Program-made: the position numbers and the translations under genes
Shown here: positions 1-44,293 of the stretch, in pieces
Layout: the number at the start of each line of letters is the position of its first letter
Numbering within the stretch: the first letter of the stretch is position 1
The notes under the pieces: model-generated
What the model was told of the DNA's origin: nothing
Databases searched by the model: none
Seen by the model: only the letters and a program-made list of their open reading frames with translations
Source of the DNA: an uncultured Alphaproteobacteria bacterium
GTDB lineage: Bacteria; Pseudomonadota; Alphaproteobacteria; HIMB59; GCA-002718135
DNA length: 64,000 nt
Reading direction: 5' to 3'
Assembly: GCA_902575815.1 (NCBI GenBank)
Contig: CACGTA010000004.1
Coordinates: forward strand, 13,925 to 77,924

Positions 1-291
1 CAAACTTGGGAGGATGAAGATGAAGTAATTAAAATTGCAAATGATACTATTTATGGTCTTGCAGCAGGTATTTGGACTAAGGATACTAATAAAGCTATTC
101 GTTTAGCGGATAAGATAGAGGCTGGAACTGTTTATATAAATAATTATTTTAATGCATCTACTCAATCTCCGGTTGGAGGCTTCAAGCAATCAGGATACGG
201 TCGTGAAAATGGATGGGAGGGAATGCAAAGTTACATGCAGACTAAATCTACTTGGCTAGCTACCAATCCATCTCAACCAGACCCATTTTAA
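1..291 (+). CDS. Aldehyde dehydrogenase, C-terminal part (truncated by window edge)
   Basis: Frame +1 reads ...IANDTIYGLAAGIWT...AGTVYINNY...PVGGFKQSGYGRENG...PDPF*, the typical ALDH C-terminus; not in the ORF track. Confidence 0.93.
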   Translation, partial: QTWEDEDEVIKIANDTIYGLAAGIWTKDTNKAIRLADKIEAGTVYINNYFNASTQSPVGGFKQSGYGRENGWEGMQSYMQTKSTWLATNPSQPDPF

Positions 292-298
292 GAAGTAA

Positions 299-1090
299 TT
301 ATTCTTTCCAGTTTGGTTCTCTTTTTTCTAAAAAAGCTTCAATACCTTCCTTGGAATCATCATGTAACATATTTTCTGTCATTACCTTTGAAGTAAAAGT
401 ATATGCGTCTTCTAAATTCATATCTTTTTGTTTGTAAAAAGCTTCTTTACCAATTTTAATAGTATTAGAAGATTTAGACGATATTTTTTTAGCAATTTGA
501 AATACATTTTCTTTTAAACTATCCTCTTCAAAGACATCATTTATTAAACCAATCCTTAATGCTTTATTTGCATCTATAAGATCTCCAGTGAGAAGCATTT
601 CCATTGCTTGCTTTTTCCCTACAGTTCTTGATAATGGAACCATTGGTGTAGAACAAAATAATCCAATATTAACACCAGGGGTTGCGTATTTTGCTCTGCT
701 ACTTGAGTAAGCTAAATCACAGCTAGAAATTAACTGACAACCTGCTGCAGTAGCAATACCATCAACCATAGCTATAACTGGTTTATTATTTTTATTAATT
801 TTCAGCATAAGTTGAGAGCACATTTGAAATATTTTTTTAAAATAGCTTTCACCTTTGTCATTTTGCAATCTTTGTGAATTTAAATCTTTTAAATTATGTC
901 CTGCACAAAAAATATTACCGTTTGATGATAAAATAATTACTTTTACATCATTATCTTTATCAGCGATGTCTAGTGCTGATGTTAATTCATTGATCATGTT
1001 TTCGCTTAAAGTATTTTGGTTTCTCTGGTCATTAAGAATAATATTAAAAATATTATTATTTTTTTCGTTTAATATTAGATTAAAATTCAT
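299..1090 (-). CDS. Enoyl-CoA hydratase/crotonase family protein
   Basis: FCAGHNL, KPVIAMVDGIATAAGCQL, PGVNIGLFCSTP, EGIEAFLEKREP motifs. Confidence 0.9.
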   Translation of the reverse strand: MNFNLILNEKNNNIFNIILNDQRNQNTLSENMINELTSALDIADKDNDVKVIILSSNGNIFCAGHNLKDLNSQRLQNDKGESYFKKIFQMCSQLMLKINKNNKPVIAMVDGIATAAGCQLISSCDLAYSSSRAKYATPGVNIGLFCSTPMVPLSRTVGKKQAMEMLLTGDLIDANKALRIGLINDVFEEDSLKENVFQIAKKISSKSSNTIKIGKEAFYKQKDMNLEDAYTFTSKVMTENMLHDDSKEGIEAFLEKREPNWKE

Positions 1091-1537
1091 TTAATTGATT
1101 TGAATTTCAACATCTTTGGATAGTGAATTAGCGATAAAACAATACTTATGTGATCTCTCTTTCATCTTTTTCATTTCTTCATCAGAAATATTAAAATTAT
1201 CTTCAAATACTATAGCTGGATTTAGCTCTATTTTGTTGACGTACATTCTCCCCTCTGCATTTTTTCCTAAATACGAAATTGCTTTATCTTTGTAATTAAT
1301 AACTGGCCATTTCATTTTTGCAGCTAAAGCTAAAAACGTCATCATAAAACAACTACTTACAGCTGCAGCTAGTTTTTGCTCTGGATTAATATTAGTTTCG
1401 CTTCCTCCATAATCTGGAGATGATCCTGCATCAATAGATACATTTTCATTAAGCATTACTGTGTGATCAGTTAAGTATTTTCCAAATTCGAGTTTTTGAT
1501 CTCCTAATTCCCACTTTAATTCGATTGAATGACTCAT
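1091..1537 (-). CDS. OsmC/Ohr family peroxiredoxin-like protein
   Basis: NPEQ..AAAVSSCFM and HKYCFIANS two-Cys motifs; start moved to ATG at 1537 (MSHSIELKW), directly behind the dmdA stop. Confidence 0.88.
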   Translation of the reverse strand: MSHSIELKWELGDQKLEFGKYLTDHTVMLNENVSIDAGSSPDYGGSETNINPEQKLAAAVSSCFMMTFLALAAKMKWPVINYKDKAISYLGKNAEGRMYVNKIELNPAIVFEDNFNISDEEMKKMKERSHKYCFIANSLSKDVEIQIN

Positions 1538-1538
1538 T

Positions 1539-2660
1539 TTAAGAATAATTAAAAGGTAGTGAGCACACTTTACCTTTTCTCTCAATGTTGTCTGGTGTTA
1601 ATACGATAACATCCTGCCCATCATTCCAATAGTCTCTATCAACCATTGATAGTCCAATATTAGTTTTTAAAAATGGTGAATAAATACCAGAGGTGATATT
1701 ACCAATTTGAAATCTATTTTTTGAGTATACAGGAAAAGGTATTGTACACGAAGGAGTCGGGGACCCATCAAAAGTAATTCCTTTTATTTTTTTTTCTATT
1801 CCATTTTTTAATATTTTTTTTAATGCATTTTTTCCAATGAAATCATGTGATAAATTGTTACAATAATTATCAAATCCACATTCAATTGGATTATTTTCTA
1901 AAGTAAATTCATTACCATAGGATAATAAACCACCTTCTATTCTATCAATTAAATTTGGACATCCAGGTGAAATATTAAAATCTTTTCCTGCTTCCCAAAT
2001 AGTTTCCCAAAGTTTTTTTCCTAAACTAAAACCTTTAAGGTAAATCTCAAAACCATCTTGTTTGCTATATCCTGATCTTGCAATTATCTGTTTTGTTCCT
2101 TCAAATTCAAAAAAAGAAAAATGAAAGAATTTTAATTTTTTAATTTTTTCTCCAAATATTGATGACATTAATTTTTCAGATTTTGGACCTTGAATTGCTA
2201 AGGGATAAATATCTGGCTCTATAATATCAACTTTAAAATTTCTTCCTACAGCCAATCCTTTTGCCCAAAGAAGGACATCTGAATCTGCAACTGATAGCCA
2301 ATATTTATTTTCACTTAATTTTAAAAGTACAGGATCATTTATCATTCCTGCATTTTCATCTATCATTGGATAATAGTAACATTTACCAATAGGCATATCT
2401 TTTATTGACCTTGGAGACATGAGTTGTATTAATTCTGTAGCATCTTCTCCTATTATTTGAACCTGTCGTTGACATGAAACATCCCAAATTTGAGTATTTT
2501 TAGATAAGTGCCAATAATCTTCTTCAACTGTTGCTTTATATGATTTTGGAAGAAGCATATGATTAACTACAGTAAAACCACTTACACCAGCCTCAATTAC
2601 TTTCTCGGTATAGGGAGTCCTCCTAATGCGTCTAGACATGTTTAATCCTGAATTACTCAT
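1539..2660 (-). CDS. dmdA: Dimethylsulfoniopropionate (DMSP) demethylase, GcvT family
   Basis: SRRIRRTPY, NHMLLP, IWDVSCQRQV, NDPVLLKL..WLSVADSD, PNLIDRIEGGLLSYG match DmdA; start moved to ATG at 2660. Confidence 0.88.
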   Translation of the reverse strand: MSNSGLNMSRRIRRTPYTEKVIEAGVSGFTVVNHMLLPKSYKATVEEDYWHLSKNTQIWDVSCQRQVQIIGEDATELIQLMSPRSIKDMPIGKCYYYPMIDENAGMINDPVLLKLSENKYWLSVADSDVLLWAKGLAVGRNFKVDIIEPDIYPLAIQGPKSEKLMSSIFGEKIKKLKFFHFSFFEFEGTKQIIARSGYSKQDGFEIYLKGFSLGKKLWETIWEAGKDFNISPGCPNLIDRIEGGLLSYGNEFTLENNPIECGFDNYCNNLSHDFIGKNALKKILKNGIEKKIKGITFDGSPTPSCTIPFPVYSKNRFQIGNITSGIYSPFLKTNIGLSMVDRDYWNDGQDVIVLTPDNIERKGKVCSLPFNYS

Positions 2661-2661
2661 T

Positions 2662-2997
2662 TTATTTAGACCACCATATTGAGTATCCATTTGGAGAAAC
2701 AATTAAAGGTATGTGATATTTTTTAAGAGGATCTTTCATTTTAAATTTAACACTGATTGAATTAATTATTTCACTAGTATTTCTAAAATATTTACCAGAA
2801 TTAATTATCATTTCATAATCACTTTCACAATCTTCTTTCGTTAATTCAAATTCTTTAAGCATTCTTCCAGAACTATCTGTTTTATCTTCTAGAAATACAA
2901 CTTTGTTATTATTATTTACTTTATAAATAACAATTTCTACATCACTTGCATGCGTACCATCTATTGAGTTTAGTAAATGTGTAGAAAAAATTGCCAT
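2662..2997 (-). CDS. Transthyretin-like / 5-hydroxyisourate hydrolase family protein with atypical C-terminus
   Basis: STHLLN..G, TDSSGR, YHIPLIVSPNGYS; ends WWSK rather than YRGS. Confidence 0.8.
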   Translation of the reverse strand: MAIFSTHLLNSIDGTHASDVEIVIYKVNNNNKVVFLEDKTDSSGRMLKEFELTKEDCESDYEMIINSGKYFRNTSEIINSISVKFKMKDPLKKYHIPLIVSPNGYSIWWSK

Positions 2998-3000
2998 AAC

Positions 3001-4743
3001 CTACTCTATAGACGCTTTATCTCTTTTATCACTAACTGCAGCAACTATTGGACTAATAACACCTTTAGCCTTAACATTTACACATGCAGTTTTACCACTT
3101 TCTAACGCTCTTTTTAAAGCGGGGCCTAAATCTTCTCTTTTAGTAACTAATTCTCCATGTCCTCCAAAACCCTCAAAAATTGAATGAAATGGAATATCTC
3201 TAAAATCAGTTGCAAAGTGTTTCCCACTTTCAAACAACCTTTCTTGTTGTTGAGAAATACAGTCAAGACCTCCATTGTTATCGATAACTACAACAATAGG
3301 TTTTTTTTCTTGAAATGCAGCTTCAATTGATAATCCGCCAGATAAAAATGCACCATCTCCACTTATTAAAACAACATTAGATTTAGGATTAAGATTTTTC
3401 GCTGATACTGCAAAAGGAACTCCAACACCTAACATACTAAAAGTGCCTGGATGTAATATTCCTCCAAGTTTTTTACCTTTTGATCCAGCAATATTAATTG
3501 CAATCTCAGACCAGAAATGTGTGTTTCCACCATCAATAACTAACCAATCATTTTCAGTTAATACTTCTTGAACATCTAAAGCTAACTGAAGAGGATGAAT
3601 TTTTCCACCTTCTTTTTTAGCCTCTTCAGTTTCTTTATTTAAATCATCCAATGTTTTATCAATCCAATTTTTTTTCTCTTTTTTATTCTTATCAAACCAT
3701 TCATTATTTAATTTCCATTTACTATTTTTCTTTAATTCTAAGAGTTTATCCAAAAAGACTCCAGGGTCACAAAGTAAATTAATATCTGCAGCTCTATTTA
3801 ATTCTATTTCTTCATGTGATCCATTAATACAAACAAGCTTTGTGCTTTTTGGAAAAAGTGGAGGATTACCAAAATTCATTTGATTATCAAGACGTGCACC
3901 AATCATAAGAACCAAATCTGATTCATTGAGAGCCATTTTTGATGGGGGGTATTGATGAATATCTGCAAGACCCATATATGTATTTGCCTCTTCACCTAAA
4001 AGTTTTTGGTGGTATGGTATATTAAATATTGGAATATTTAATTCAAACCCAGCTTGCTCTAATTTTTGTTCTGCACTTGACCACCAAACTCCATGCCCTC
4101 CAATAAAAACAGGTTTTTGTGCACTAATTGCTAGATCAAATATTTCATTTAAACTCTCAGGATCAGGCCAAGCTTTTGCTAAAGGTTTCTTTTGATGAGT
4201 AAAAGGTCTTTCTTCTAAACCTGCATCATCTGCAAATGATGAAAACATTATATCTACTGGTACACTTAAATGTACTGCACCAGGATAGCCATTTGTTGCA
4301 ATTCTATATGCTTTATCTACGAACTCTCTTATTCTGTTGCCATCTGTTATACTTGCACTGTATTTTGTTAACGGTGCTGCAATAGATACATCATCTATTT
4401 CCTTAAAACCGCCTGCTCCTTGTCTTTTTAAACTACTTGATCCAGTTATAAAAATAACAGGTGATCTTTCACCCCAAGCTTCCATCATTGAGGGTACTGC
4501 ATTTGCAAAACCTTCTGGCCCGACAATACAAACGGATGGTTTTCTTGATATTCTAGTATGACCATCAGCTAAATGACCAGCAATTTGTTCATGAGGACAA
4601 TTAATTACATTAATTTGACACTCCATAAATCCTTCAAGTGCTGGATTACAAAAACCTCCAGAAAGTGTAAATACATTATCAATACCTTTGTCTCTAAGAG
4701 CTCTTGCAACTAATGCCCCACCTCTAATCTTTTTATCTCCCAT
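3001..4743 (-). CDS. Thiamine diphosphate-dependent enzyme (ALS/oxalyl-CoA decarboxylase/2-hydroxyacyl-CoA lyase superfamily)
   Basis: HEQ..G..ADG catalytic Glu region; GDGAF...IDNN ThDP-binding motif; 580 aa. Confidence 0.9.
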   Translation of the reverse strand: MGDKKIRGGALVARALRDKGIDNVFTLSGGFCNPALEGFMECQINVINCPHEQIAGHLADGHTRISRKPSVCIVGPEGFANAVPSMMEAWGERSPVIFITGSSSLKRQGAGGFKEIDDVSIAAPLTKYSASITDGNRIREFVDKAYRIATNGYPGAVHLSVPVDIMFSSFADDAGLEERPFTHQKKPLAKAWPDPESLNEIFDLAISAQKPVFIGGHGVWWSSAEQKLEQAGFELNIPIFNIPYHQKLLGEEANTYMGLADIHQYPPSKMALNESDLVLMIGARLDNQMNFGNPPLFPKSTKLVCINGSHEEIELNRAADINLLCDPGVFLDKLLELKKNSKWKLNNEWFDKNKKEKKNWIDKTLDDLNKETEEAKKEGGKIHPLQLALDVQEVLTENDWLVIDGGNTHFWSEIAINIAGSKGKKLGGILHPGTFSMLGVGVPFAVSAKNLNPKSNVVLISGDGAFLSGGLSIEAAFQEKKPIVVVIDNNGGLDCISQQQERLFESGKHFATDFRDIPFHSIFEGFGGHGELVTKREDLGPALKRALESGKTACVNVKAKGVISPIVAAVSDKRDKASIE

Positions 4744-4744
4744 T

Positions 4745-5908
4745 TTAATACTTTATATCCTTAAAAAATTTCTCTGCTATAATTTTTTTATCAACTTCAT
4801 TTATATCGGTTAATCCCACTAAGCCAAGATTTGTACTTAACTCTTCTTTAATAAGGTTAATGATTCTTCTAAGACCTTTTGCGCCATCAGCACCGATGGC
4901 ATACATTAGAGGTCTGCCAAACATAACAAAGTCAGCTCCCAGAGCTAACGCGCGTAAAATATCACTACCACTTCTAATTCCACTATCAAAAAGTATTGGA
5001 AAATCGTCTCCCAAAGCTTTTCGTATTAATGGTAAAGCATTAATAGAAGCAGTAGCACTATCTAATTGTCTTCCACCATGATTTGATACTTGAATTGCAT
5101 CAGCACCAGCCTCTTTAATTTTCAAAGCATCTTCAGAATTCATTACTCCTTTGATTATTAATTTTCCTTTCCAAGCGTCTCGAACCCTTTTGAGAGTATT
5201 CCAATCAGTTGCCCCTCTACTTTCTTTTCGTCTAAAAACTTGATCACCACTTTTGGAGGTAACATAATTCATTGGTTGTGGAGCGCCTTTAAACAAAGTT
5301 GTTAAACTCCATTGAGGATGTAGTGCAAAATCTAAAAATTGTTTTGGGCCAATTTTAAATGGATAACCAAAGCCATTTCTATCATCTCTAGCTCTTCTTG
5401 AAAGAATTGGAACATCAACAGTAAGAATCAAAACCTTGTATCCAATGTTTTCTGCTCTTTTTAATAATTCCATAATAAATTCTTCACTTTGAAAAATATA
5501 TATTTGCATCCATGAATGACCTTCAGAAAAAGTAAACATATCTTCAAGCGTAGTACTAGAAGCCATTGAAACACATGTTGGAATATTATTATACGCACTT
5601 TCTTTTGCTATCATTTTATCTGCTTCAGGCCATGAAAGATTTGTCATTCCCATTGGTGCAAATCCAAATGGATAATCAAAATGAAAATCAAATATTTTCT
5701 TACTTAAATTTCTATTCTCGACATTTCTGAAAACTTTAGGTTCAAGTCTAATTTGATCTAATGCCTTACTATTAATTTCAGCAAGTTTATCATCTCCTGA
5801 TGCTCCATCAATGAAATCAAAGACTAATTTTGGTAATCTCTTTTTAGATAATCTAATTGCATCATCTATTGTATGGATTTTAGTGCTAGCTTTAATGAGA
5901 TCATTCAT
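4745..5908 (-). CDS. FMN-dependent alpha-hydroxy acid dehydrogenase (LldD/glycolate oxidase/mandelate DH family)
   Basis: LTVD, IIKGV, VSNHGGRQLD, DSGIRSGSDILRALALGA. Confidence 0.93.
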   Translation of the reverse strand: MNDLIKASTKIHTIDDAIRLSKKRLPKLVFDFIDGASGDDKLAEINSKALDQIRLEPKVFRNVENRNLSKKIFDFHFDYPFGFAPMGMTNLSWPEADKMIAKESAYNNIPTCVSMASSTTLEDMFTFSEGHSWMQIYIFQSEEFIMELLKRAENIGYKVLILTVDVPILSRRARDDRNGFGYPFKIGPKQFLDFALHPQWSLTTLFKGAPQPMNYVTSKSGDQVFRRKESRGATDWNTLKRVRDAWKGKLIIKGVMNSEDALKIKEAGADAIQVSNHGGRQLDSATASINALPLIRKALGDDFPILFDSGIRSGSDILRALALGADFVMFGRPLMYAIGADGAKGLRRIINLIKEELSTNLGLVGLTDINEVDKKIIAEKFFKDIKY

Positions 5909-5956
5909 TTTAATATTTGTATTCTAATATAATTTATAATTCTATTATAAAATATA

Positions 5957-7186
5957 TTAGTTTTTTGAAATACCCTTCCAAGGTATTGGACTAGATGGAA
6001 TATTTTCTTTTAAACCTCTTTGTATTTCACCTTTCTCATCATACATTGGTAAAGTACAAATTTCACCTTTTTGCACACTACCATCATCACAACTAACATC
6101 TACTATTGTATCTGGTCCAAATTCTGCATTATCCATATGAACTATAGCAACACCACAAACTTGAAATGGCGACCATGTACTTGAAGTTACAATTCCAACT
6201 TTTTTATTATTTATAGAAATTTTAGAATCAACTAATGCAAAACTATTTTCAACTCTCAAACCCCATGTTAAACAATCTTTGCTTGCATTAAGTAAATAAT
6301 CTCTTCCAATAAAATCACCTTTATTAAAATCTATAAACTTTCCTAATCCAACAGCAAATGGAGATCGATCTCTCGTAAAATCCCTCCCTGCAGATAAGAG
6401 ACCTGCCTCAATTCTTCTACATCTAAAACCTGGCGAGGCTGTTAGAATCATTCCCATTTCTTCACCTTTACTGAGTATTAAGTCTCCAATCTTTTTTGAA
6501 TCATTTTCTGGTCTTAAATAAATTTCCCAGCCAAGTTCATTTGTAAACCCTGTTCTGCTTATAATCACTTTTTCTGAAGCAATTGAAGTTTCAACCCAAT
6601 CAAAATAATTAAAACTATTTTTAAATGGTTGATCAACTAGTTTTTCTAACAGTTTTAGAGATTTAGGGCCTTGTATTTGACTGACCCAAACATTTGGATC
6701 TTTAATTTCAACATCTAAATTTTTCGAATGAGCTTTGTACCAACTATATAAATGTCCATCACCTTGTGCAAACCAAAATTTATTTTTTTCTAATTTTAAT
6801 AATAATCCATCTGAAATCATTCCTCCATCATGGTAACAAGCAAATTGATAAGAACATCTTCCTATTTTTACTTTTGAAATATCTCTAGGAAATATTTTTT
6901 GAAGTAAATTTTCAGCATCCGGACCAGAGATTTCGTAAGGATGCTCACCCGTATGACGTAAAATTATTTCTTGTCTAGCTTTCCAATACATTTCATCTGC
7001 TGTAGCATGAGATAATTTTTCAAGTGTAAATCTCCCATCAGCGTAGTTAGTATATTCTGGGTTAAATGGTAATTCTTGATAAGTTAGAGGATGTATTTTC
7101 ATGGGTCTAGCCAAATCTAGAGATCTACCAGTTTCTTTAATAACTGGCTTTACAACAAATCTGTAATTACTAACTAAATCTCCCAT
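5957..7186 (-). CDS. GcvT-family THF-dependent aminomethyltransferase/demethylase, substrate unknown
   Basis: EISGPDA, QIQGPKS, SRTGFTNELGWEIY, RRIEAG. Confidence 0.88.
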   Translation of the reverse strand: MGDLVSNYRFVVKPVIKETGRSLDLARPMKIHPLTYQELPFNPEYTNYADGRFTLEKLSHATADEMYWKARQEIILRHTGEHPYEISGPDAENLLQKIFPRDISKVKIGRCSYQFACYHDGGMISDGLLLKLEKNKFWFAQGDGHLYSWYKAHSKNLDVEIKDPNVWVSQIQGPKSLKLLEKLVDQPFKNSFNYFDWVETSIASEKVIISRTGFTNELGWEIYLRPENDSKKIGDLILSKGEEMGMILTASPGFRCRRIEAGLLSAGRDFTRDRSPFAVGLGKFIDFNKGDFIGRDYLLNASKDCLTWGLRVENSFALVDSKISINNKKVGIVTSSTWSPFQVCGVAIVHMDNAEFGPDTIVDVSCDDGSVQKGEICTLPMYDEKGEIQRGLKENIPSSPIPWKGISKN

Positions 7187-7227
7187 AAAATTTATTCAAC
7201 TTATCACAAAATAATGAAAAAAAAATT

Positions 7228-8151
7228 TTAAAATAAATTCTTAATAGCTTCAATATGTCGTGGTTTTACTTCACAGCATCCACCAACTAGAGTAACACCT
7301 TCATTTAAAGAATTTAAAACAAACTTTTTATATTTTTCTTCTCCAAATTCTTCATTTCGAGTTCCAAGTAACTCAACTGGATCAATATAATCATAATGTC
7401 CTTCAAAGCCTTCTGAATTGAATTTTTCTTTATTACTAGTAGGCAGTTGTTTAAATAAATTCATTTTATAACCAAAAGGAAGTTTTTGTTTATTGAACAT
7501 AGGAATACTCAAATTAACAATTTCAGGTGATACGCAAGCTGATACTATGCCGCAACAATTATATTTTTGTATAGTTTCAAAAAGTTCATCAAGACTTTCT
7601 CCAGATGGTAATTTTCCATCATAACGTAAGTGTACACCTACAAGAACTTGTTTATTAAATTCTTTTGAAGCTTCTAAAGCAATTTTTATTTCTTTGATGG
7701 AACACAAAACATCTAAGTAAAATATATCGACATAATCTTTTAATATTTTTGCAATTTCATGAAAATAATTAAACATTGTTTCATCAGTTTCAAAATGTAT
7801 TGGGGAATATGTATTACCTTGATTTGGCAATGAGCCTGCAACAATAACTTTTTTATCACTTTCATTTTTTGCTTTTAATGCGAGTGATCCAGCAGATCTT
7901 ATTCCAAATTCAAATTTATTAAGTAAATTATATTTTTTTAATAGCCTTCTTCTAACACTAAAATTTGAAGTAACGATTAATTGTGATCCTGCATTTATAA
8001 AATTTTTGTGCATTTCTAATACCATTGGGTGATTATTTTCATTTAATAAAGCTTGTGCAGACCAAAGATCACCGGTTGTTTCTAGACCCATTTCCATTAA
8101 AGTTTGACCTGAACCTCCATCAAAGAGATATTTCTTATTTTGTAAAAACAT
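7228..8151 (-). CDS. Homocysteine S-methyltransferase family protein (MmuM/BHMT-like)
   Basis: LFDGG.G..L, WSA.AL, H.NFI.AG, Zn-ligand Cys in ACVSP and GGCC. Confidence 0.88.
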   Translation of the reverse strand: MFLQNKKYLFDGGSGQTLMEMGLETTGDLWSAQALLNENNHPMVLEMHKNFINAGSQLIVTSNFSVRRRLLKKYNLLNKFEFGIRSAGSLALKAKNESDKKVIVAGSLPNQGNTYSPIHFETDETMFNYFHEIAKILKDYVDIFYLDVLCSIKEIKIALEASKEFNKQVLVGVHLRYDGKLPSGESLDELFETIQKYNCCGIVSACVSPEIVNLSIPMFNKQKLPFGYKMNLFKQLPTSNKEKFNSEGFEGHYDYIDPVELLGTRNEEFGEEKYKKFVLNSLNEGVTLVGGCCEVKPRHIEAIKNLF

Positions 8152-8169
8152 TTTTTTGGAAAATTAGAA

Positions 8170-8200
8170 GAAAAAGTGTGGCGCATTTAAATGCGCCACA
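8170..8200 (-). terminator. Stem-loop/intrinsic terminator downstream of the solute-binding protein gene
   Basis: Perfect 24-bp palindrome TGTGGCGCATTTAAATGCGCCACA (8177-8200) followed by CTTTTT on the minus strand. Confidence 0.8.
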
Positions 8201-8215
8201 AAGAAAATTAATATT

Positions 8216-9844
8216 TTATGCAAACCACCAACGTTCAGAAAGTTTGTTACCATCACTTTCCCAGTTACCAGCAACATCTTCACCGTGAGCAAGTTTTTTA
8301 GAACCAGCACCAACATATTGGTTAAATGCATAAACAATTGCACCACCATCGTAGTTACAAAGAGCTTGTGCTTCCCAGTACATTGATTTTCTTTTTTCCG
8401 CATCAAGTTCTGATCTAGCAGATCTAACAAGTTCATTGAAACGAACAGTTGAATCAGTTTGAACTAGATTACCCCAAGCAGCTTCGTTCCACTCAGTATC
8501 ATCAGTGAATGCAGCAGACCACATCATATCTTCTGTAGGTCTTCCACCCCAAGAACTCATACTGAAACCTTTAGTGTTCCATACGTTACTCCAGTAACCA
8601 TCTTCAGGTTCTTTTTTAACTCGAAGATCGATACCGCATTCTTGAGCAGATGCTGCTATCAAGTTAGTTGCATCTGTACATCCTGCATAAGGAACCTCAG
8701 AAGTACTAATTTCAATTGGTCCACTTACTCCAGATTTTTTCCAGTGAAAAGCAGCTTTATCAGCATCGAACTCTCTCTGCTCTAAAGCATTATTATGATA
8801 TGGGTGAGCAGTAGAGATCGGGTGATCATTACCCACTGTTCCATATCCTAGCATTATCTTATCAACAATTTCTTGTCTTTTGATTGCAAACTTCATTGCC
8901 ATACGAACATCAAAATTATCAAATGGTGGCACATTTAATCTCATAGGAGCTGTATAGTGTGCATATCCAGATGCTGCAGTAATTTCAACATTTGGATCTC
9001 TAGTTAATAAATTTGCAGTTCTTAAGTCAACACCGTTCATCCAGTCTATTTCACCATTTAATAATGCTGCTTGTCTTGTAGCAGGATCATTAATTCCGAT
9101 TACTTCAACTGAATCAAAGTGTGCAACACTATCACCTTTGAAATAATTTGGATTTCTTTTTCCAAATTTTGCTCCAACACCTGGATTGAATTCATCCATA
9201 ATGTATGGACCAGTTCCAATAGTAGATTGAGCATCAACAACTCCATCTTTTGTTGGTTTAATCATAATGTGATAGTCAGTAGTTATTGCAGGCCAATCGG
9301 CATTTGCACCTTTTAGCTTAAAAATAACTCTGTCATTTCCATCAGCAGAAACTGTTTCAATTTGAGATAAAAGTCCACCTGCTGCCGAAGCAGTATCTGG
9401 ATTCATGTGATACTGATAGTTGAGCACAACATCTTCTGCTGTCATTGATTTACCATTATGGAATTCAACACCTTTGCGAAGATTATATACCCATGTTTGA
9501 GCATCGTCTGATTCAATTGACTCAGCAAGCTCTCCAACAATTGTGTGATCTGAATCAACAACAGTTAGACAGTTCTGATATGACCAAGCAGTAGCTTGCA
9601 TAAATGAGCTCTGATAAGTTGCTGGATCAAGAGTATCAGTTGCATCTGCTGCACTATTACCCCATCTTAAATGTCCACCTTTTTTTGGTGTAGCTGCAAC
9701 TGCTTTATCTGCTAATGATAATGCAATTGGTAGCGTGACCCCAGTAGCAAGGACAGACATCATGAACTGTCTTCTATCAATAAGCCCTTTTGTTAGCTTT
9801 GAAGACTGTTCTTCAATGTATTTGTCTATTTTCTTATTTTTCAT
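8216..9844 (-). CDS. ABC transporter family-5 (peptide/nickel/opine-type) solute-binding protein with Tat signal
   Basis: RRQFM twin-arginine motif, TPKKGG, GELAES, LRKGVEFHNGK, GTGPY; GGGAGGA SD before ATG at 9844. Confidence 0.92.
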   Translation of the reverse strand: MKNKKIDKYIEEQSSKLTKGLIDRRQFMMSVLATGVTLPIALSLADKAVAATPKKGGHLRWGNSAADATDTLDPATYQSSFMQATAWSYQNCLTVVDSDHTIVGELAESIESDDAQTWVYNLRKGVEFHNGKSMTAEDVVLNYQYHMNPDTASAAGGLLSQIETVSADGNDRVIFKLKGANADWPAITTDYHIMIKPTKDGVVDAQSTIGTGPYIMDEFNPGVGAKFGKRNPNYFKGDSVAHFDSVEVIGINDPATRQAALLNGEIDWMNGVDLRTANLLTRDPNVEITAASGYAHYTAPMRLNVPPFDNFDVRMAMKFAIKRQEIVDKIMLGYGTVGNDHPISTAHPYHNNALEQREFDADKAAFHWKKSGVSGPIEISTSEVPYAGCTDATNLIAASAQECGIDLRVKKEPEDGYWSNVWNTKGFSMSSWGGRPTEDMMWSAAFTDDTEWNEAAWGNLVQTDSTVRFNELVRSARSELDAEKRKSMYWEAQALCNYDGGAIVYAFNQYVGAGSKKLAHGEDVAGNWESDGNKLSERWWFA

Positions 9845-10045
9845 TTGTCCTCCCTTATAATTGAACAAAAACCTAAGATTTTTGTTCATAATTTCTAGAA
9901 ATTTAACAAAAAACAAACTTAAGTTAATATATAAAAACATATATAACGTTTTAATTCAACGTATAAATTATTAATTTTAGCTTACATGTTGACCTAATTT
10001 AGACAAAACTTTAAGAATTAAGATTGTATCTTTAAGGAGGGTAAT

Positions 10046-11044
10046 ATTAGTAGAATTCATCCAATATTTAGAACAATTTTGTTAAGGCTTAGCCTTGGTC
10101 TCGTTACAGTTTTTGCATTCTCGGTAATAATATTTAGTACATTCTCTTTTTTACCGGGAGACTTTGCCACGGAAATATTAGGTCAAAGTGCAACAAAATC
10201 TGCAGTGAAAGCCCTAAGAGCAGAATTGGGTTTAGATAAACCTCCGGTAACAAGATATTTTGATTGGTTAGGAAATGTTTTTCAAGGAGATTTTGGTAGT
10301 TCTTTCTCTGGAAGATCTAAAGTTCAAGGGGATCAAGGTGATAGGTCTAGAGAAGTTGTGGGTTTAATTGTCCCCAGATTAAAGAATACATTATTTTTAA
10401 CAGGGGTTGCCGCCATGTTGGCTATTCCTCTATCTTTAATCTTAGGTATCTCAGCAGCATTATACAGAAACTCTTATTATGATAGGTCAGCAACTGGAGT
10501 TAGCTTAGTAACCGTATCTTCACCAGAATTTTTTACAGCCTATATTTTTATTCTTTTACTAGCGACACTGTTTCCAGTTTTTCCAACTATTTCTAATGTG
10601 GATGAAGCTTCAACTTTGGCTGAAAGATTTTACAGGACTGCTCTTCCAGTTTTTACTTTGACATTAATTACTATGGGTCACATGATGAGAATGACAAGGT
10701 CAGCGATAATAAATATCTTATCAAGTGAATATATTCAAATGGCAAAATTATCAGGAGCCTCAAGATATGAAGTAGTTGTTAAGCACGCACTTCCAAATGC
10801 TTGGGCACCTATTTCTCAAGTAATTGCAATAAACTTAGCTTACATGTTGATTGGTTCAGTTGTTGTTGAATATGTTTTTAACTATCAAGGTATTGGTAGG
10901 TTGATGGTCGGATCAGTCTATAATCGAGATTTACCCGTTGTTCAAGCTTGTGCATTAATTTTTGCATCAACATATGTAATATTAAATTTAATTGCTGACT
11001 TGATCGGAATTATTTCTAACCCAAGGTTATTATATCCCAAATGA
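10046..11044 (+). CDS. DppB/OppB-like ABC permease (start uncertain: ATT 10046 or TTG 10079)
   Basis: LPGD, GLDKP, GDFG.S, EY...A..G, KHALPNA, VVEYVF..GIG, RDLPVVQ. Confidence 0.92.
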   Translation: MSRIHPIFRTILLRLSLGLVTVFAFSVIIFSTFSFLPGDFATEILGQSATKSAVKALRAELGLDKPPVTRYFDWLGNVFQGDFGSSFSGRSKVQGDQGDRSREVVGLIVPRLKNTLFLTGVAAMLAIPLSLILGISAALYRNSYYDRSATGVSLVTVSSPEFFTAYIFILLLATLFPVFPTISNVDEASTLAERFYRTALPVFTLTLITMGHMMRMTRSAIINILSSEYIQMAKLSGASRYEVVVKHALPNAWAPISQVIAINLAYMLIGSVVVEYVFNYQGIGRLMVGSVYNRDLPVVQACALIFASTYVILNLIADLIGIISNPRLLYPK

Positions 11045-11961
11045 GCGAAAATTTATCTTATTCTGCAAAAAGTGAAGTTGCAAATTTAATTAAAAGAAGA
11101 ACTAGATTAGAAAGATTAAAAATTGCCTTATCAAAAGCTCCAATCTCAGCTTGGTTTGGTATGATTGTACTATTTATATATTTTTTTGCTGCAATATTTG
11201 CTCCCTTAATTGCTCCACATGGAGAAGCAGAAATATTCCCAGTAGCTTATGCTCCTTGGGGTGATGGTCATATATTTGGTACTGATCAAATTGGAAGAGA
11301 TATTTTTTCTCGCATTATCTATGCTGCAAGAAATACAATTGGTATTTGTTTATTGGCTACTTTTATTGCTTTAGGAATTGGAACAGTATTTGGAATTATA
11401 GCTGCTCTGGATAGAAGGTATTTAGATCAGCTATTAAGTAGAATAGTAGACACGCTTATGGCTATACCTGTAATGATTTTTACTTTTATACTTTTATCAG
11501 TTTTTGGACCTACTAATTTTAATTTAATTGTCATTTTAGGAATTTTGGAGTCAACTAGATTTTTTAGAATATCAAGATCAGTTGCTGTTGGTCAAGTTGT
11601 TCTAGAATATGTAGAGGTCGCGAGATTAAGAGGTGAAAATTTATCATATATTATATTCAGAGAAATACTTCCTAATATAGCTTCACCTTTGATTATTGAG
11701 TTTGGTTTAAGGTTCATATTTATAATTTTTACAATATCTAGTTTAAGTTTTTTAGGAATTGGCATTCAACCCCCTTCAGCAGATTGGGCATCAATGGTGA
11801 GGGAAAATGCAATACTTATTCAATATGCGCAATATGATATAACGGCAGGTTTAACACCATTAATTCCAGCTGCTGCAATTGCTTTACTTTGTGTATCAAT
11901 TAATTTTGTTGTTGATTGGTATCTTTACATTACTAGCGGATTAAAAGATGACGTTAAATAA
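11041..11961 (+). CDS. DppC/OppC-like ABC permease
   Basis: HIFGTDQIGRDIFSR, EYVEVARLRGE, EILPN, LSFLGIGIQPP. Confidence 0.92.
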   Translation: MSENLSYSAKSEVANLIKRRTRLERLKIALSKAPISAWFGMIVLFIYFFAAIFAPLIAPHGEAEIFPVAYAPWGDGHIFGTDQIGRDIFSRIIYAARNTIGICLLATFIALGIGTVFGIIAALDRRYLDQLLSRIVDTLMAIPVMIFTFILLSVFGPTNFNLIVILGILESTRFFRISRSVAVGQVVLEYVEVARLRGENLSYIIFREILPNIASPLIIEFGLRFIFIIFTISSLSFLGIGIQPPSADWASMVRENAILIQYAQYDITAGLTPLIPAAAIALLCVSINFVVDWYLYITSGLKDDVK

Positions 11962-13561
11962 ATCAAAAGAACTCCTGCTTGAAATGAAAAATATCCATAT
12001 TGATGGATTTTCAGATGAGAGATGGCATAAAATTTTAAAAGGTGTAGATTTGACTTTACACAGAGGAGAAATACTAGGATTAATTGGAGAGAGTGGTGCC
12101 GGAAAATCTACTATGGGTAAAGCTGCAATGGGCTATACCCAACCAGGTTGTAAGATTATAAAAGGAGAAATTAATTTTAATGGCATAGACCTCGCTAAAC
12201 TAACTGAATTTGAAAAGAGAAAAATTTGGGGAACTAAAATATCTTATGTTGCTCAATCAGCAGCAGCATCTTTTAATCCTGCTCATAGATTAATGGAGCA
12301 AACAATAAGTGCTGCTAATAGATTAAAGATAAATCCAACGGATGTGTTAAAAAAAGATGCGGTTCAACTTTATGAATCACTACAGCTTCCAGATGCGGAA
12401 AATATAGGAAATAGATACCCGCATCAAGTATCTGGAGGGCAACTACAAAGAATAATGACTGCAATGGCTATGTCCCCAAGACCAGAGTTAATTATATTTG
12501 ATGAGCCCACAACAGCTTTAGATGTAACAACTCAAGTTGAAGTATTATCTGCTATGAGATCTATAGTAGATAAATTTAATACAGCAGCAATTTATATTAC
12601 TCATGATTTAGCCGTAGTTGCGCAAATGGCTGATAGAATAAAAGTTTTGCGATACGGTGAAGAAGTTGAAGAAGCTGAAACAAGAGATATGCTATCAAAC
12701 CCAAAAGAAGAATACACCAAATCTCTATGGTCAGTAAGATCACTGATCAAGCCTGAAGAAACAAATGAAGATTATATGTTGTCTATTAAAAATATTGATG
12801 CAGCATATGGCTCATCAAAGGTCTTACATAATGTTTCTATAGATATTCCTAAAGGTAAAACAGTAGCTATAGTTGGTGAAAGTGGATCAGGAAAATCAAC
12901 AACAGCAAGAGTAATTACAGGCTTACTTCCTCAATTAAAAGGAGAAATAATTTTTGATGGAAAAAAATTGTCTCCAAAACTTGATCAAAGGTCAAAAGAA
13001 GAATTAAGAAGAATTCAAATAATTTTTCAAATGCCTGACACTGCAATGAACCCTCGTCAAACTGTTGATGAAATAATAGGAAGGCCAATAGAATTTTATC
13101 AAGGTATAAAAGGAAAAGAAAGAGAAGCAAAAGTTATTGAATTATTAAAAATGATTGAGCTAGATGAAACTTTTTTAGATAGATTACCATCCGAATTATC
13201 TGGAGGTCAAAAACAGAGAATATGCATTGCAAGAGCTTTAGCGGCTAACCCAGATTTAATTATTTGTGATGAAGTAACATCAGCACTAGATCAAATTGTT
13301 CAAGAAGGAATATTAAAATTACTTCAAAAATTACAAAAAGAGCTTGGTGTTACTTATATTTTTATAACCCATGATATAGCAACGGTTAAAGCAATCTCAG
13401 ATGAAATAGTTGTTATGTATCAAGGTGAGGTAGTGGAACAAGGTTTGAAAAGTAAAATTTTGAATCCACCATATCCTGATTATACAGAACTTTTATTGTC
13501 TTCAGTCCCAGAAATGGATCCTGATTGGCTAACCAATCTTCTGAATAAAAGATCTTCCTAG
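11948..13561 (+). CDS. Fused double ABC ATPase (DppD-DppF type)
   Basis: Two Walker A (GESGAGKS, GESGSGKS), signatures VSGGQ/LSGGQ, two DE..TALD/SALD motifs. Confidence 0.93.
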   Translation: MTLNKSKELLLEMKNIHIDGFSDERWHKILKGVDLTLHRGEILGLIGESGAGKSTMGKAAMGYTQPGCKIIKGEINFNGIDLAKLTEFEKRKIWGTKISYVAQSAAASFNPAHRLMEQTISAANRLKINPTDVLKKDAVQLYESLQLPDAENIGNRYPHQVSGGQLQRIMTAMAMSPRPELIIFDEPTTALDVTTQVEVLSAMRSIVDKFNTAAIYITHDLAVVAQMADRIKVLRYGEEVEEAETRDMLSNPKEEYTKSLWSVRSLIKPEETNEDYMLSIKNIDAAYGSSKVLHNVSIDIPKGKTVAIVGESGSGKSTTARVITGLLPQLKGEIIFDGKKLSPKLDQRSKEELRRIQIIFQMPDTAMNPRQTVDEIIGRPIEFYQGIKGKEREAKVIELLKMIELDETFLDRLPSELSGGQKQRICIARALAANPDLIICDEVTSALDQIVQEGILKLLQKLQKELGVTYIFITHDIATVKAISDEIVVMYQGEVVEQGLKSKILNPPYPDYTELLLSSVPEMDPDWLTNLLNKRSS

Positions 13562-13579
13562 TAATCTATATTTTAAATA

Positions 13580-13846
13580 ATGAATATATTTAAATTTTTA
13601 CTTAATTTTTTTTCTAGCAAAGAAAATAGAATAGATAATCTAGAAGCAAAAAATATAATGATAATTGAGAACAGGTTTAATAAATATAATTTAACATTAG
13701 GTTCTATTTACAAAGTAAATCAAAATATAAAACTAAAAAATTTTAAAAATAAAATTCTTGAAGATAGCTTAACAATAGTAGTTACTGACAATAAAGGTAA
13801 AACTATTGGATATATCTCTAAAAAAGAGATAGATAATATTCAATAA
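13580..13846 (+). CDS. Small hypothetical protein, possible single degenerate CBS domain
   Basis: 88-aa ORF filling the gap in the operon, stop abuts the next ATG; AKNIM...IVVTDNKGKTIGYISKKEI resembles a CBS fold. Confidence 0.55.
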   Translation: MNIFKFLLNFFSSKENRIDNLEAKNIMIIENRFNKYNLTLGSIYKVNQNIKLKNFKNKILEDSLTIVVTDNKGKTIGYISKKEIDNIQ

Positions 13847-14629
13847 ATGAAAATCAATCTGAATAAAAAAAATTATGTTATATCTGCTGGTGCAGATGGT
13901 TTAGGTTTTGCTATAGCAAATAAGATAATTAATTCAGGGGGTAAGGTATATTTATCTGATATAAATAAATCAAAAATTGATAAAATAAATTCAAATAAAA
14001 AATATCGTAATAAAATATTTGCTCAACACTTAGACTGCACAAATCCCAAAGACATAAAAAAATATTTTAATTCCATATCAAACTTAAAAAAAATAGATGG
14101 ATTAATAAATAATATTGGTATTGCAGGACCTACAAAGTATCTTCAAAATATTTCAATAGATGAATGGGATAACACAATAAAAACCAATTTAAGTTCACAT
14201 TTTTATTTTACAAAATTTGCTATTCCATTTTTAAAAAAAGCTAAAAAAGGATCTATCATTAATTTATCTTCAACTGCAGGATTATATGGTTTTGCTCAAC
14301 GTTCACCATATGCATCAAGTAAATGGGCAATAATTGGATTAACTAAAACATTAGCTGTTGAGTTAGGAAAATTTAAAATACGAGTAAATGCAATTTGTCC
14401 TGGTTCTGTTAATGGCGATAGAATGGATAGAGTAATAAATGCTAAAGCTAAATTAATTAATTCAACAAATAAACAAGTAAGAAAAGAATTAGAGTCAATG
14501 GTTTCATTAAACACATTTGTAGAAAAAGAAGATATTGCATCAATGGCCTTATTTTTATTAAGTAATGCCTCAGAAAATGTATCTGGTCAAATCATGACTG
14601 TTGATGGAAATACTGAAAGAATGAATTAG
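13847..14629 (+). CDS. Short-chain dehydrogenase/reductase
   Basis: SAGADGLG nucleotide-binding loop, NNIG, YASSK catalytic motif, VNAICPG. Confidence 0.92.
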   Translation: MKINLNKKNYVISAGADGLGFAIANKIINSGGKVYLSDINKSKIDKINSNKKYRNKIFAQHLDCTNPKDIKKYFNSISNLKKIDGLINNIGIAGPTKYLQNISIDEWDNTIKTNLSSHFYFTKFAIPFLKKAKKGSIINLSSTAGLYGFAQRSPYASSKWAIIGLTKTLAVELGKFKIRVNAICPGSVNGDRMDRVINAKAKLINSTNKQVRKELESMVSLNTFVEKEDIASMALFLLSNASENVSGQIMTVDGNTERMN

Positions 14630-16230: not shown

Positions 16231-16250
16231 AAAATTAAAATCTAATATAA

Positions 16251-16430
16251 TTAGATAGTTTTTCTTCTAAGAGTCCAACCGTATCTTTCGCTGTAGTATG
16301 CTTCGATACCATCAGCAAGATTAAGGTCATAATTTGAGTCTATAGATCCTTCAAGAACCTTCTTCTCAATAGAACTCTGCTCTAGGCTTTCTTTTTGGTT
16401 ATTAATGTTTTCTGTTAATTTACTATTCAT
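16251..16430 (-). CDS. Small protein (59 aa) divergent from the ScfR/RamB regulator
   Basis: Manually translated MNSKLTENINNQKESLEQSSIEKKVLEGSIDSNYDLNLADGIEAYYSERYGWTLRRKTI*; fills an otherwise unusually long gap; just below the ORF-track cutoff. Confidence 0.75.
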   Translation of the reverse strand: MNSKLTENINNQKESLEQSSIEKKVLEGSIDSNYDLNLADGIEAYYSERYGWTLRRKTI

Positions 16431-16540
16431 ATTTACAGATTTTACAAATACATAATAATATAAAAAAAAACTAGTGTTTTTCTTATTTTTAATGTAAAGA
16501 AAATTACTTCAAATTTTTTATTTTTGTAAATTTTGTAAAT
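16431..16540. promoter_or_regulatory. Divergent control region with paired TTTACAAA/TTTGTAAA boxes (putative ScfR/RamB operators)
   Basis: ATTTACAGATTTTACAAA (16431-16448) and TTTGTAAATTTTGTAAAT (16523-16540) are 16/18 reverse complements. Confidence 0.65.
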
Positions 16541-18986: not shown

Positions 18987-18988
18987 AA

Positions 18989-19909: not shown

Positions 19910-19910
19910 A

Positions 19911-44208: not shown

Positions 44209-44293
44209 GGCCTCGTGGTGGAATGGTAGACACAAAGGACTTAAAATCCTTGCCCTTTTGGGAGTGCCGGTTCAAGTCCGGCCGAGGCTACCA
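44209..44293 (+). tRNA. tRNA-Leu (anticodon TAA)
   Basis: GGCCTCG/CGAGGCT acceptor stem, D-loop GGTAGAC, anticodon arm AAGGA-CTTAAAA-TCCTT, long variable arm, GGTTCAAGTCC, encoded CCA. Confidence 0.96.

Follow-up and report, generated by a model that had tools for sequence, protein, structure and literature searches.

A conserved, undescribed gene cluster with a DMSP demethylase paralogue in streamlined marine Alphaproteobacteria

Introduction

The demethylase gene dmdA is used as a marker for the share of marine dimethylsulfoniopropionate (DMSP) that goes to methanethiol as opposed to climate-active dimethyl sulfide (DMS), and it is mostly ascribed to SAR11; clades A to E are distinguished, and the commonest subclades, C/2 and D/1, are ascribed to different SAR11 genotypes (PMC13360808, PMC7370799). 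Here we describe a gene cluster built around a paralogue of this gene, dmdA2, on a 64-kb stretch of DNA (positions 13925-77924 of contig 4 of genome G000, hereafter the window) from an uncultured alphaproteobacterium of the HIMB59 lineage, whose assembly comprises 1.07 Mb in 56 contigs, is an estimated 58% complete and has a G+C content of about 30%. The cluster is real and conserved, and it is undescribed, although assembled from known enzyme families; a literature search, which did not extend to supplementary files, found no paper describing it. Nine co-directional genes on the minus strand span positions 299-9844, as established from the listing of open reading frames together with Pfam and NCBIfam. 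In the order of transcription they and their immediate neighbours are:

10079-11044, 11041-11961 and 11948-13561, plus strand: Dpp/Nik-type ATP-binding cassette (ABC) importer, divergent, two permeases and a fused double ATPase (NCBIfam)
8216-9844, minus strand: family-5 solute-binding protein (SBP) with twin-arginine signal (Pfam SBP_bac_5, 229 bits)
8177-8200, minus strand: terminator-like hairpin with T-run between the SBP and HMT genes (10 pairs, 6 of them G-C)
7228-8151, minus strand: divergent homocysteine S-methyltransferase-domain protein (HMT; Pfam S-methyl_trans, PF02574, 137.5 bits against 22)
5957-7186, minus strand: GcvT2, a DmdA/Tdm-like tetrahydrofolate (THF)-binding protein of the aminomethyltransferase family (NCBIfam Tdm 181 bits, DmdA 179 bits)
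4745-5908, minus strand: flavin mononucleotide (FMN)-dependent 2-hydroxy-acid dehydrogenase (Pfam FMN_dh, 399 bits)
3001-4743, minus strand: thiamine diphosphate (ThDP) enzyme of a narrow family (three Pfam TPP_enzyme domains)
2662-2997, minus strand: transthyretin (TTR)-like protein of the transthyretin/5-hydroxyisourate hydrolase (HIUase) family with altered C-terminus (Pfam, 70.7 bits)
1539-2660, minus strand: DmdA2, a DMSP demethylase paralogue (NCBIfam NF009133, 532.1 bits, cut-off 410)
1091-1537, minus strand: OsmC-family protein with two cysteines (Pfam OsmC, PF02566, 57.4 bits against 27.5)
299-1090, minus strand: crotonase-family enoyl-CoA hydratase (NCBIfam PRK08139, 369 bits against 313)
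1-291, plus strand: 3' end of a betaine aldehyde dehydrogenase (BADH)-like aldehyde dehydrogenase (ALDH), convergent (Pfam/NCBIfam)

Among the closest described systems is the DMSP pathway encoded by dmdA, dmdB, dmdC plus dmdD/acuH in Ruegeria pomeroyi and Pelagibacter ubique. DmdA2 likewise scores above the DmdA cut-off and keeps the folate-contacting Glu and Tyr, and in the window's genus the crotonase that follows it sits where DmdD/AcuH would fit (PMC6850173). The cluster differs from this pathway in that DmdA2 is a paralogue, no dmdB or dmdC is adjacent and the crotonase is nearest to ECHDC3 rather than DmdD. The fixed partners of DmdA2, namely this 2-hydroxy-acid dehydrogenase, the ThDP enzyme and the TTR-like protein, have no counterpart in the DMSP pathway. 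A second point of comparison is the mandelate module (FMN-dependent MdlB, ThDP-dependent MdlC and the aldehyde dehydrogenase MdlD), in which a 2-hydroxy acid is converted to a 2-oxo acid and then to an aldehyde. As in that module, an FMN-dependent 2-hydroxy-acid dehydrogenase adjoins a ThDP enzyme here, and among the solved relatives of the dehydrogenase (S)-mandelate dehydrogenase ranks second. However, the ThDP enzyme of the cluster is nearer to oxalyl-CoA decarboxylase, 2-hydroxyacyl-CoA lyase (HACL) and benzaldehyde lyase than to decarboxylases of free acids, an ALDH is not conserved, and the methyltransferases and the TTR-like protein are additional.

Three further systems share single elements with the cluster. 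The bhmT-osmC-ordL locus of P. ubique HTCC1062, which is reported to be under the control of an S-adenosylmethionine (SAM) riboswitch and induced by sulfur limitation, combines a homocysteine methyltransferase with an OsmC protein, as does the locus described here (PMC5069961). The latter differs in having no SAM riboswitch within positions 1-10200, an HMT far below the BHMT and MmuM scores, and five genes between HMT and OsmC. The DsyD domain of DsyGD would carry out the same net reaction, from a C4 sulfonium 2-hydroxy acid to the C3 compound DMSP, if 4-dimethylsulfonio-2-hydroxybutyrate (DMSHB) were the substrate of the cluster. DsyD, however, resembles ureidoglycolate lyase (PF04115) and has no relationship with the cluster enzymes, and here two or three enzymes with a catabolic role would be concerned. 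Finally, the TTR-like protein shares with the HIUases PucM and YedX its fold family and the active-site residues His, Arg and His, but differs from them in its C-terminus (WW[SP]x, not YRGS), its score below the cut-off and the lack of purine-catabolic neighbours.

Conservation and architecture of the cluster

The gaps between successive genes from SBP to crotonase are 64, 41, 48, 1, 3, 1, 1 and 0 nt, so that the last six genes lie 0-3 nt apart; these coordinates bear out the initial annotation, which had reported eight co-directional genes behind a family-5 SBP, six of them nearly gapless, and an ALDH converging on their far end. The start codon of the SBP gene (ATG at 9844) is preceded by AGGGAGGA, a good ribosome-binding site, and the twin-arginine signal RRQFM can be read from the sequence of its product. 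The divergent permeases and fused ATPase belong to the same importer as this SBP and are syntenic, with 82-100% identity, in the loci of the window's genus. The hairpin at 8177-8200, which the initial annotation had not noted, is strong and stands immediately 3' of the SBP gene.

A scan of one genome per species returned at least 599 matching stretches. A protein related to the ThDP enzyme is encoded by 557 of those listed, and the 80 best loci were analysed. Thirty-one of them belong to the window's genus, being single-cell or metagenome assemblies titled 'uncultured Alphaproteobacteria', and 49 are of the Pelagibacteraceae type, titled Pelagibacter, Pelagibacteraceae or Pelagibacterales with the exception of one 36% G+C contig titled Rhodobacterales. 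Within the window's genus all nine genes are present in the same order in 24 of the 31 loci, and the other seven, which are cut by contig ends, retain two to eight genes with the order kept. The cluster is also carried by three cultured isolates, HIMB1709, HIMB1695 and Uisw_090, all of the Pelagibacteraceae type. The representation of the genes in the 49 loci of this type is as follows:

ThDP enzyme: 49
TTR-like protein: 49
DmdA: 48
FMN dehydrogenase: 47
S51 peptidase, immediately 5' of the dehydrogenase: 45
thiolase, immediately 3' of DmdA: 45
GcvT2: 41
divergent Dpp-type importer: 41
HMT: 3, the gene being present in all window-genus loci that extend that far

Apart from HMT, the genes missing from these counts are cases at contig ends. 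The invariant core consists of the FMN dehydrogenase, the ThDP enzyme, the TTR-like protein and DmdA2, the importer and GcvT2 being nearly always present, while HMT, the S51 peptidase and either crotonase or thiolase are lineage-dependent companions. The core is retained in all four architectures of the set, across two orders. Adjacency of the dehydrogenase and ThDP genes (1 nt apart in the window) is kept in 47 of the 49 Pelagibacteraceae-type loci, and dmdA2 begins 1-36 nt after the TTR gene, as judged from tblastn match ends, in all 76 of the 80 loci that reach that far. One Pelagibacteraceae-type locus (L045) presents HMT, GcvT2, S51 peptidase, FMN dehydrogenase, ThDP enzyme, TTR-like protein, DmdA2 and thiolase as one string in which successive match ends are 2-46 nt apart, and in another (L065) an SBP copy 51% identical to that of the window lies directly 5' of the core. 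OsmC and crotonase were found, among the analysed loci, in the window's genus only, and the thiolase occupies the place of the crotonase in the Pelagibacteraceae type. Neither dmdB nor dmdC stands beside dmdA2 in any analysed locus.

The Pelagibacteraceae-type proteins are 81-88% (ThDP enzyme), 67-75% (dehydrogenase), 62-70% (DmdA), 62-66% (GcvT2) and 48-64% (TTR-like protein) identical to those of the window, and the ThDP proteins of the 31 window-genus loci are 96-100% identical. The same high conservation of the ThDP enzyme is seen over about 60 species-level genomes of the genus (96-100%) and across the orders (78-88%), clearly above that of neighbouring genes. In three window-genus loci (L036, L039 and L040) identity falls to 66-68% for HMT and to 78-79% for GcvT2. 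Recent transfer between the orders was considered and is not needed, as the cross-order identity of DmdA2 (70%) is close to that of canonical DmdA (66%) and only the ThDP enzyme is unusually conserved.

DmdA2 is an old paralogue within the DmdA family

The initial annotation had recognised a dmdA in this locus, and its family assignment stands, since the score is far above the NF009133 cut-off, a search in which a control set of 14 well-known genomes yielded nothing above that threshold; against the crystallised P. ubique DmdA (PDB 3tfh) the protein scores 405 bits. It is nevertheless not the sole dmdA of its carriers. All three genomes checked hold a canonical dmdA besides dmdA2, with the following NF009133 scores:

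G099 (window's genus, 96% complete): cluster copy 535 bits, second copy 525 bits
G582 (Uisw_090): cluster copy 564 bits, second copy 612 bits
G583 (HIMB1709): cluster copy 521 bits, second copy 586 bits

The canonical copies are 369 aa long, as is the crystallised enzyme, and in the two isolates the gene is positioned behind dmdB/dmdC-like genes for an acyl-CoA dehydrogenase and an acyl-CoA synthetase and behind that of a 258-aa protein, matching the arrangement dmdA-mhpC-fadD-mmgC reported for HTCC1062 (PMC3160333). Within a genome DmdA2 and canonical DmdA are 45-48% identical; between the orders, identity is 66% for the canonical and 70% for the DmdA2 copies. In the phylogenetic tree all matches above 450 bits form a single DmdA clade (support 99) apart from other GcvT-family proteins, and within it DmdA2 forms a subclade (support 100) whose sister group is the SAR11-type subclade of canonical enzymes (support 85). 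The canonical copies group separately, likewise with full support, so DmdA2 is not orthologous to the assayed SAR11_0246 of P. ubique (PDB 3tfh). By its sequence, then, DmdA2 is an old paralogue with a clade of its own inside the DmdA family, and because of this nesting DMSP or a close analogue appears the likeliest substrate. The retention of two DmdA paralogues in genomes of 1.1-1.6 Mb argues for separate roles; paralogues are reported to be rare in SAR11 (PMC3160333).

One DMSP-specific contact of DmdA is given as W171 in PMC7487153, and our own mapping places it on the SGW motif, the folate residues E178 and Y180 sharing the same offset. At this position all 15 DmdA2 sequences carry Tyr in place of Trp, with the folate Glu and Tyr retained. 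Among 24 DmdAs above the cut-off from outside the cluster, nine have Tyr, one Phe and 14 Trp, and the top-scoring high-G+C ones mostly have Tyr.

The genome of the window itself shows the cluster copy of dmdA only, which at 58% completeness is uninformative as to a second copy. On another of its contigs (contig 12, 10873-16900) a DmdB-like acyl-CoA synthetase gene (product 70% identical to that of Pelagibacter) precedes a gene of 436 aa and one homologous to that of the 258-aa protein, with no dmdA adjacent on that 22-kb contig. HIMB1709 has a third DmdA-like gene on a long branch (L164, G583:C1:455000-471000, positions 7471-8610; 401.8 bits against 410), and two genomes of the second family of the window's order (G024 and G025) have a DmdA-like copy below the cut-off about 8 kb from their dmdA.

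Distribution and co-inheritance

Among 185 species genomes of the window's order, the ThDP gene was found in 67 of the 102 of the window's genus, in none of the 11 of the other genera of the family and in 0 of 71 genomes from the second family. Within the genus, the genomes without it include two that are near-complete (92% and 91%), and together with three others these gave no DNA match to window positions 2400-12000; because of such genomes the cluster must be regarded as accessory even inside the genus. A sample of 401 Pelagibacterales genomes, the order of isolate Uisw_090, contained the ThDP gene in 65 and GcvT2 in 65. Both were present in 64, the ThDP gene alone in one, at a contig edge, GcvT2 alone in one, and neither in 335. 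This survey supersedes a check of five Pelagibacterales genomes free of the ThDP gene, which at strict thresholds gave no match to GcvT2 or the thiolase. The expectation of the initial annotation that the gene set would co-occur across relatives is borne out by this pattern, and the scattering without co-occurrence that would have spoken against it is contradicted by the order kept in the window-genus loci and the core kept in those of the Pelagibacteraceae type. The genes form a genuine unit that is inherited together, and it is carried by marine Alphaproteobacteria with streamlined genomes: the window's genus and, among the Pelagibacterales, a minority.

In eleven Pelagibacterales genomes (G852, G860, G800, G892, G923, G815, G886, G686, G756, G784 and G937) the GcvT2 match contains one in-frame TAA or TAG. 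These stops probably sit at the N-terminal edge and leave the gene unbroken, its open frame (407-411 aa) equalling the match length.

In a class-wide sample of 401 genomes the ThDP gene occurred only in the genome of the window, one genus-mate and G247, described below; TTR or ThDP genes lay within 1.5 kb of an above-cut-off DmdA in two window-genus loci and in none of 24 others. Only three full-length relatives with more than 34% identity (68%, 48% and 35%) were present among 1.84 billion cluster representatives, for which reason the ThDP family is considered narrow; the 68% relative stands for a cluster of 805 members. A metagenome scan queried with the 48% relative yielded a single 4-kb contig, which lacks the partner genes, and apart from it relatives at about 30%. 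The ESM Atlas offers just the name 'thiamine pyrophosphate-binding protein', and a search of plasmids found no ThDP orthologue.

The trio of dehydrogenase, ThDP enzyme and TTR-like protein in G247

G247 is a complete 4.3-Mb alphaproteobacterial genome (59% G+C) from an order of three species, of which it is the only carrier of the ThDP gene. It encodes the trio of dehydrogenase (50% identical), ThDP enzyme (70%) and TTR-like protein (36%) in the same order as in the window, followed by a TAXI-type binding protein of a tripartite ATP-independent periplasmic (TRAP) transporter and a fused DctQM membrane protein. The 20-kb locus contains no ALDH, and neither a crotonase nor a thiolase follows the trio. 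By its gene content, the trio is a separable module that can work without DmdA on a compound imported by a TRAP system, a carboxylate-type transporter. Immediately upstream of it lies an IS4/5-family DDE transposase gene (L096, G247:C1:1600500-1620400, positions 12572-13396), the adjacency of which suggests that the trio reached G247 by transfer.

Family affinities of the enzymes

The top solved relatives of the FMN dehydrogenase are L-lactate oxidase (267 bits) and (S)-mandelate dehydrogenase (240 bits), and it misses the cut-offs of the lactate enzymes (PRK11197, 273 against 376; LldD, 228 against 550). The ThDP enzyme, in which the cofactor motif GDG...NN is present, finds its nearest solved relatives in oxalyl-CoA decarboxylase and the 2-hydroxyacyl-CoA lyases (175-190 bits), followed by benzaldehyde lyase (161 bits) and then the acetolactate synthases. 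It reaches none of the curated cut-offs (acetolactate synthase, 271 against 587; oxalyl-CoA decarboxylase, 204 against 557 and 189 against 739; actinobacterial HACL, 243 against 600). Its identity to the orthologues is 78-88% in Pelagibacterales and 70% in G247. The TTR-like protein scores 70.6 bits with the HIUase model, the cut-off of which is 87.45, and in all 15 aligned orthologues it ends in YS[IV]WW[SP]x instead of YRGS, the C-terminal signature of HIUases; His, Arg and His are retained.

GcvT2 scores far under the NCBIfam cut-offs, and its matches to the solved DmdA (125 bits) and Tdm (124 bits) place it equidistant in sequence from DmdA and the THF domain of trimethylamine N-oxide (TMAO) demethylase. 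HMT had been proposed to be an MmuM-like enzyme handling S-methylmethionine; the S-methyl_trans domain is indeed present, but the curated BHMT and MmuM scores are not reached (86.6 bits against 215 and 85.1 against 338), nor is any other NCBIfam cut-off, and its sole solved relative is the homocysteine domain of MetH (56 bits). Near its C-terminus there is a GGCC motif, which has a role in zinc binding. For the SBP the closest solved structures bind nickel or peptides, at merely 62-82 bits. The OsmC-like protein has two Cys in its translation and falls short of the NCBIfam subfamily cut-offs, and the crotonase has human ECHDC3 as its best solved relative (237 bits), DmdD being absent from its 26 hits at E<=1e-25. 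A pair of OsmC and crotonase genes encoding proteins 60% and 62% identical to these occurs in another context in a cluster-free genus-mate (L165, G041:C3:24000-42000, positions 7558-8792). The alternative raised by the initial annotation, that the enzymes act on ordinary substrates, finds no support in these scores, since those of the curated lactate, acetolactate, oxalyl-CoA, HIU and betaine/S-methylmethionine enzymes are all missed.

Genomic neighbourhood and RNA libraries

The converging ALDH comes second in a gene pair with a glucose-methanol-choline (GMC) oxidoreductase, the pair being mostly outside the window (L013, G000:C4:1-14400; GMC 11056-12693 and ALDH 12743-14215) and kept in the window-genus loci. 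It probably belongs to a convergent unit of its own with this choline-dehydrogenase-like oxidoreductase. Over 35 kb around the cluster there are two choline-dehydrogenase-type genes (one above the cut-off), two BADH-like ALDHs and a gamma-butyrobetaine/TmpA-like dioxygenase, together with a short-chain dehydrogenase/reductase (SDR), a RamB-like regulator, a carnitine-dehydrogenase-like gene and a BKACE gene. The richness of these surroundings in such genes agrees with the onium-compound setting initially proposed and fits an island for methylated onium compounds.

Within the window, positions 14629-20801 encode choline dehydrogenase (PRK02106, 701 bits against 605), the SDR, the RamB-like regulator (413 bits, below the cut-off), a curcumin-reductase-like enzyme, the carnitine-dehydrogenase-like gene (340 against 414) and the BKACE-family gene. 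On the left flank, positions 4044-12693 of L013 encode a cysteine-desulfurase-like gene, the second BADH-like ALDH, the dioxygenase (325 against 415), two proteins for which NCBIfam gave no match at E<=1e-10, an MmgE/PrpD-like gene and the GMC oxidoreductase (520 against 605), and are mostly syntenic across the genus. Together the two regions look like an island of quaternary-amine catabolism.

The cluster is present in seawater RNA libraries. Contigs of four metatranscriptomes from four studies cover 30 of 30 bins of positions 1-10200 and bridge every junction, including the hairpin, the crossing of which is not proof of read-through. The SBP region has a far higher word depth in these contigs, but contig depth is unfit for ranking genes. 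Control of the cluster by RNA elements was considered and rejected: in a search of positions 1-10200 against Rfam no riboswitch, SAM riboswitch or other family was found at gathering score or E<=5, and the two weak matches in this interval are to eukaryotic families. A tRNA gene (44209-44290) is the sole Rfam match at gathering score within the 64-kb window.

Proposed function and alternatives

We tentatively propose that these genes serve, as an accessory cluster, the catabolism of a methylated sulfonium compound that is imported and degraded by way of a 2-hydroxy and a 2-oxo acid. The importer would bring in a methylated sulfonium of the DMSP family, itself a 2-hydroxy acid or converted to one. 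Its methyl groups would be transferred to THF by DmdA2 and GcvT2 or to homocysteine by HMT, the FMN dehydrogenase would produce the 2-oxo acid, and the ThDP enzyme would cleave the C1-C2 bond in the style of the mandelate pathway, so that the shortened product could enter the ordinary route of DMSP and methylmercaptopropionate. In a variant a THF methyltransferase would act first, converting DMSHB to 4-methylthio-2-hydroxybutyrate, and the dehydrogenase would then yield the keto acid of methionine; the methionine hydroxy analogue is oxidised in this way by the animal L-2-hydroxy-acid oxidase. Which substrate is used, in what order the steps follow and what each enzyme does are all inferred; DMSHB is one candidate, and the route from it outlined in the initial annotation is chemically coherent. 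A more specific version appears unlikely: an undescribed pathway of SAR11 and HIMB59-like bacteria for a C4 sulfonium such as DMSHB or S-methylmethionine, in which a dedicated DmdA paralogue and a second THF methyltransferase would remove the methyl groups, a new family of ThDP decarboxylases would accomplish with the FMN dehydrogenase the long-sought shortening of DMSHB to DMSP, and the TTR-like protein would have a role outside purine metabolism.

Several observations weigh against the main proposal. The only above-cut-off DmdA-family match of G247 (410 bits) lies 1 Mb from its trio, and since this genome has the trio without a dmdA beside it, the substrate of the trio need not be methylated. 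DmdA2, being nested in the DmdA family, may simply act on DMSP, and its Trp-to-Tyr exchange had to be rejected as a sign of a new substrate, Tyr occurring also in nine of the 24 DmdAs outside the cluster. The importer binding proteins of the window's genus and of Pelagibacteraceae are only 27-31% identical. An ALDH lies within 10 kb in just one of the 49 Pelagibacteraceae-type loci; the ALDH initially assigned to the oxidation of DMSP-aldehyde is paired with the GMC oxidoreductase and has no counterpart within 10 kb in the other 48, so that this part of the earlier scheme is not supported. The nearest solved relatives of the ThDP enzyme act on CoA esters; a crotonase or thiolase follows DmdA2, yet the cluster contains no CoA ligase; and the scheme gives no role to either the S51 peptidase or the TTR-like protein. 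The RNA contigs bridge the convergent ALDH/crotonase junction as well and such libraries can contain DNA, so their continuity does not imply a single transcript. The proposal as a whole draws on gene families, the paralogy of DmdA2, conservation and co-occurrence.

The main alternative is a cluster in which two functions lie side by side, the trio degrading an unmethylated 2-hydroxy acid while DmdA2 and GcvT2 serve as ordinary C1/THF enzymes that share its regulation but not its pathway, which we consider possible but somewhat doubtful. Glycolate, lactate, 2-hydroxyglutarate and ureidoglycolate are candidate substrates, the last being oxidised to oxalurate with a subsequent HIUase-like cleavage of the acyl-ureide. 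The trio of G247 with its TAXI-TRAP system and no nearby dmdA, the position of DmdA2 inside the DmdA family and the difference of the importers between lineages all agree with such a division, as does the retention of the His, Arg and His of HIUases in the TTR-like protein, the chemistry of HIUases being the hydrolysis of acyl-ureides. The division is harder to reconcile with the constant position of DmdA2 1-36 nt behind the TTR gene in all 76 of the 80 loci that reach that far, with the class-wide restriction of TTR or ThDP genes beside an above-cut-off DmdA to two window-genus loci (none of 24 others), with the same presence/absence pattern of GcvT2, and with the curated cut-offs for lactate and HIUase enzymes that are not reached. 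A CoA-dependent route resembling alpha-oxidation, in which the ThDP enzyme would be of the 2-hydroxyacyl-CoA lyase/synthase type, would act with the crotonase or thiolase on a CoA ester, that of an acid either DMSP-derived or branched, and would leave to the FMN enzyme a free 2-hydroxy acid formed as a side product, is as a whole very unlikely. It would account for the nearest solved structures of the ThDP enzyme (oxalyl-CoA decarboxylase and 2-hydroxyacyl-CoA lyases, 175-190 bits), for its 243 bits with the actinobacterial HACL model and for the CoA-ester enzyme after DmdA2 in both lineages, but the cut-offs for HACL (600) and oxalyl-CoA decarboxylase (557) are far from reached, no cluster architecture includes a CoA ligase or transferase, G247 has no crotonase or thiolase after its trio, and in the cluster-free genus-mate G041 an OsmC-crotonase pair stands outside the cluster context.

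In streamlined genomes, long runs of co-directional genes separated by tiny gaps are frequent, and the hairpin after the SBP gene divides the present one. That the genes form a chance string of unrelated functions produced by genome streamlining is nevertheless extremely improbable in view of the synteny in two orders, the near-perfectly shared presence and absence, and the four architectures that keep the core. The catabolism of a methylated sulfonium compound is retained as our tentative proposal.

Significance

By published description, HTCC1062, HTCC1002 and HTCC7211, the classic model strains, have just four aminomethyltransferases each and, among dmdA loci, the dmdA-mhpC-fadD-mmgC locus only (PMC3160333). 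The cluster is thus apparently absent from them, which may be why it has gone unstudied. In a sizeable share of the streamlined bacteria studied here (67 of the 102 species genomes in the window's genus, 65 of the 401 Pelagibacterales sampled) a second, old dmdA is locked in a conserved, uncharacterised gene set. If the C4-sulfonium pathway were true, part of the dmdA surveyed in the ocean would report that pathway and not plain demethylation of DMSP. A link from DMSHB to DMSP would matter because the enzyme decarboxylating DMSHB is described as unknown in most organisms (PMC11306096). Whatever the substrate, a ThDP enzyme family and a transthyretin-like subfamily, both of them new, would acquire a function. 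Since the cluster has three cultured carriers and reduced sulfur is a requirement of SAR11, the proposal is directly testable by growth on sulfonium compounds.

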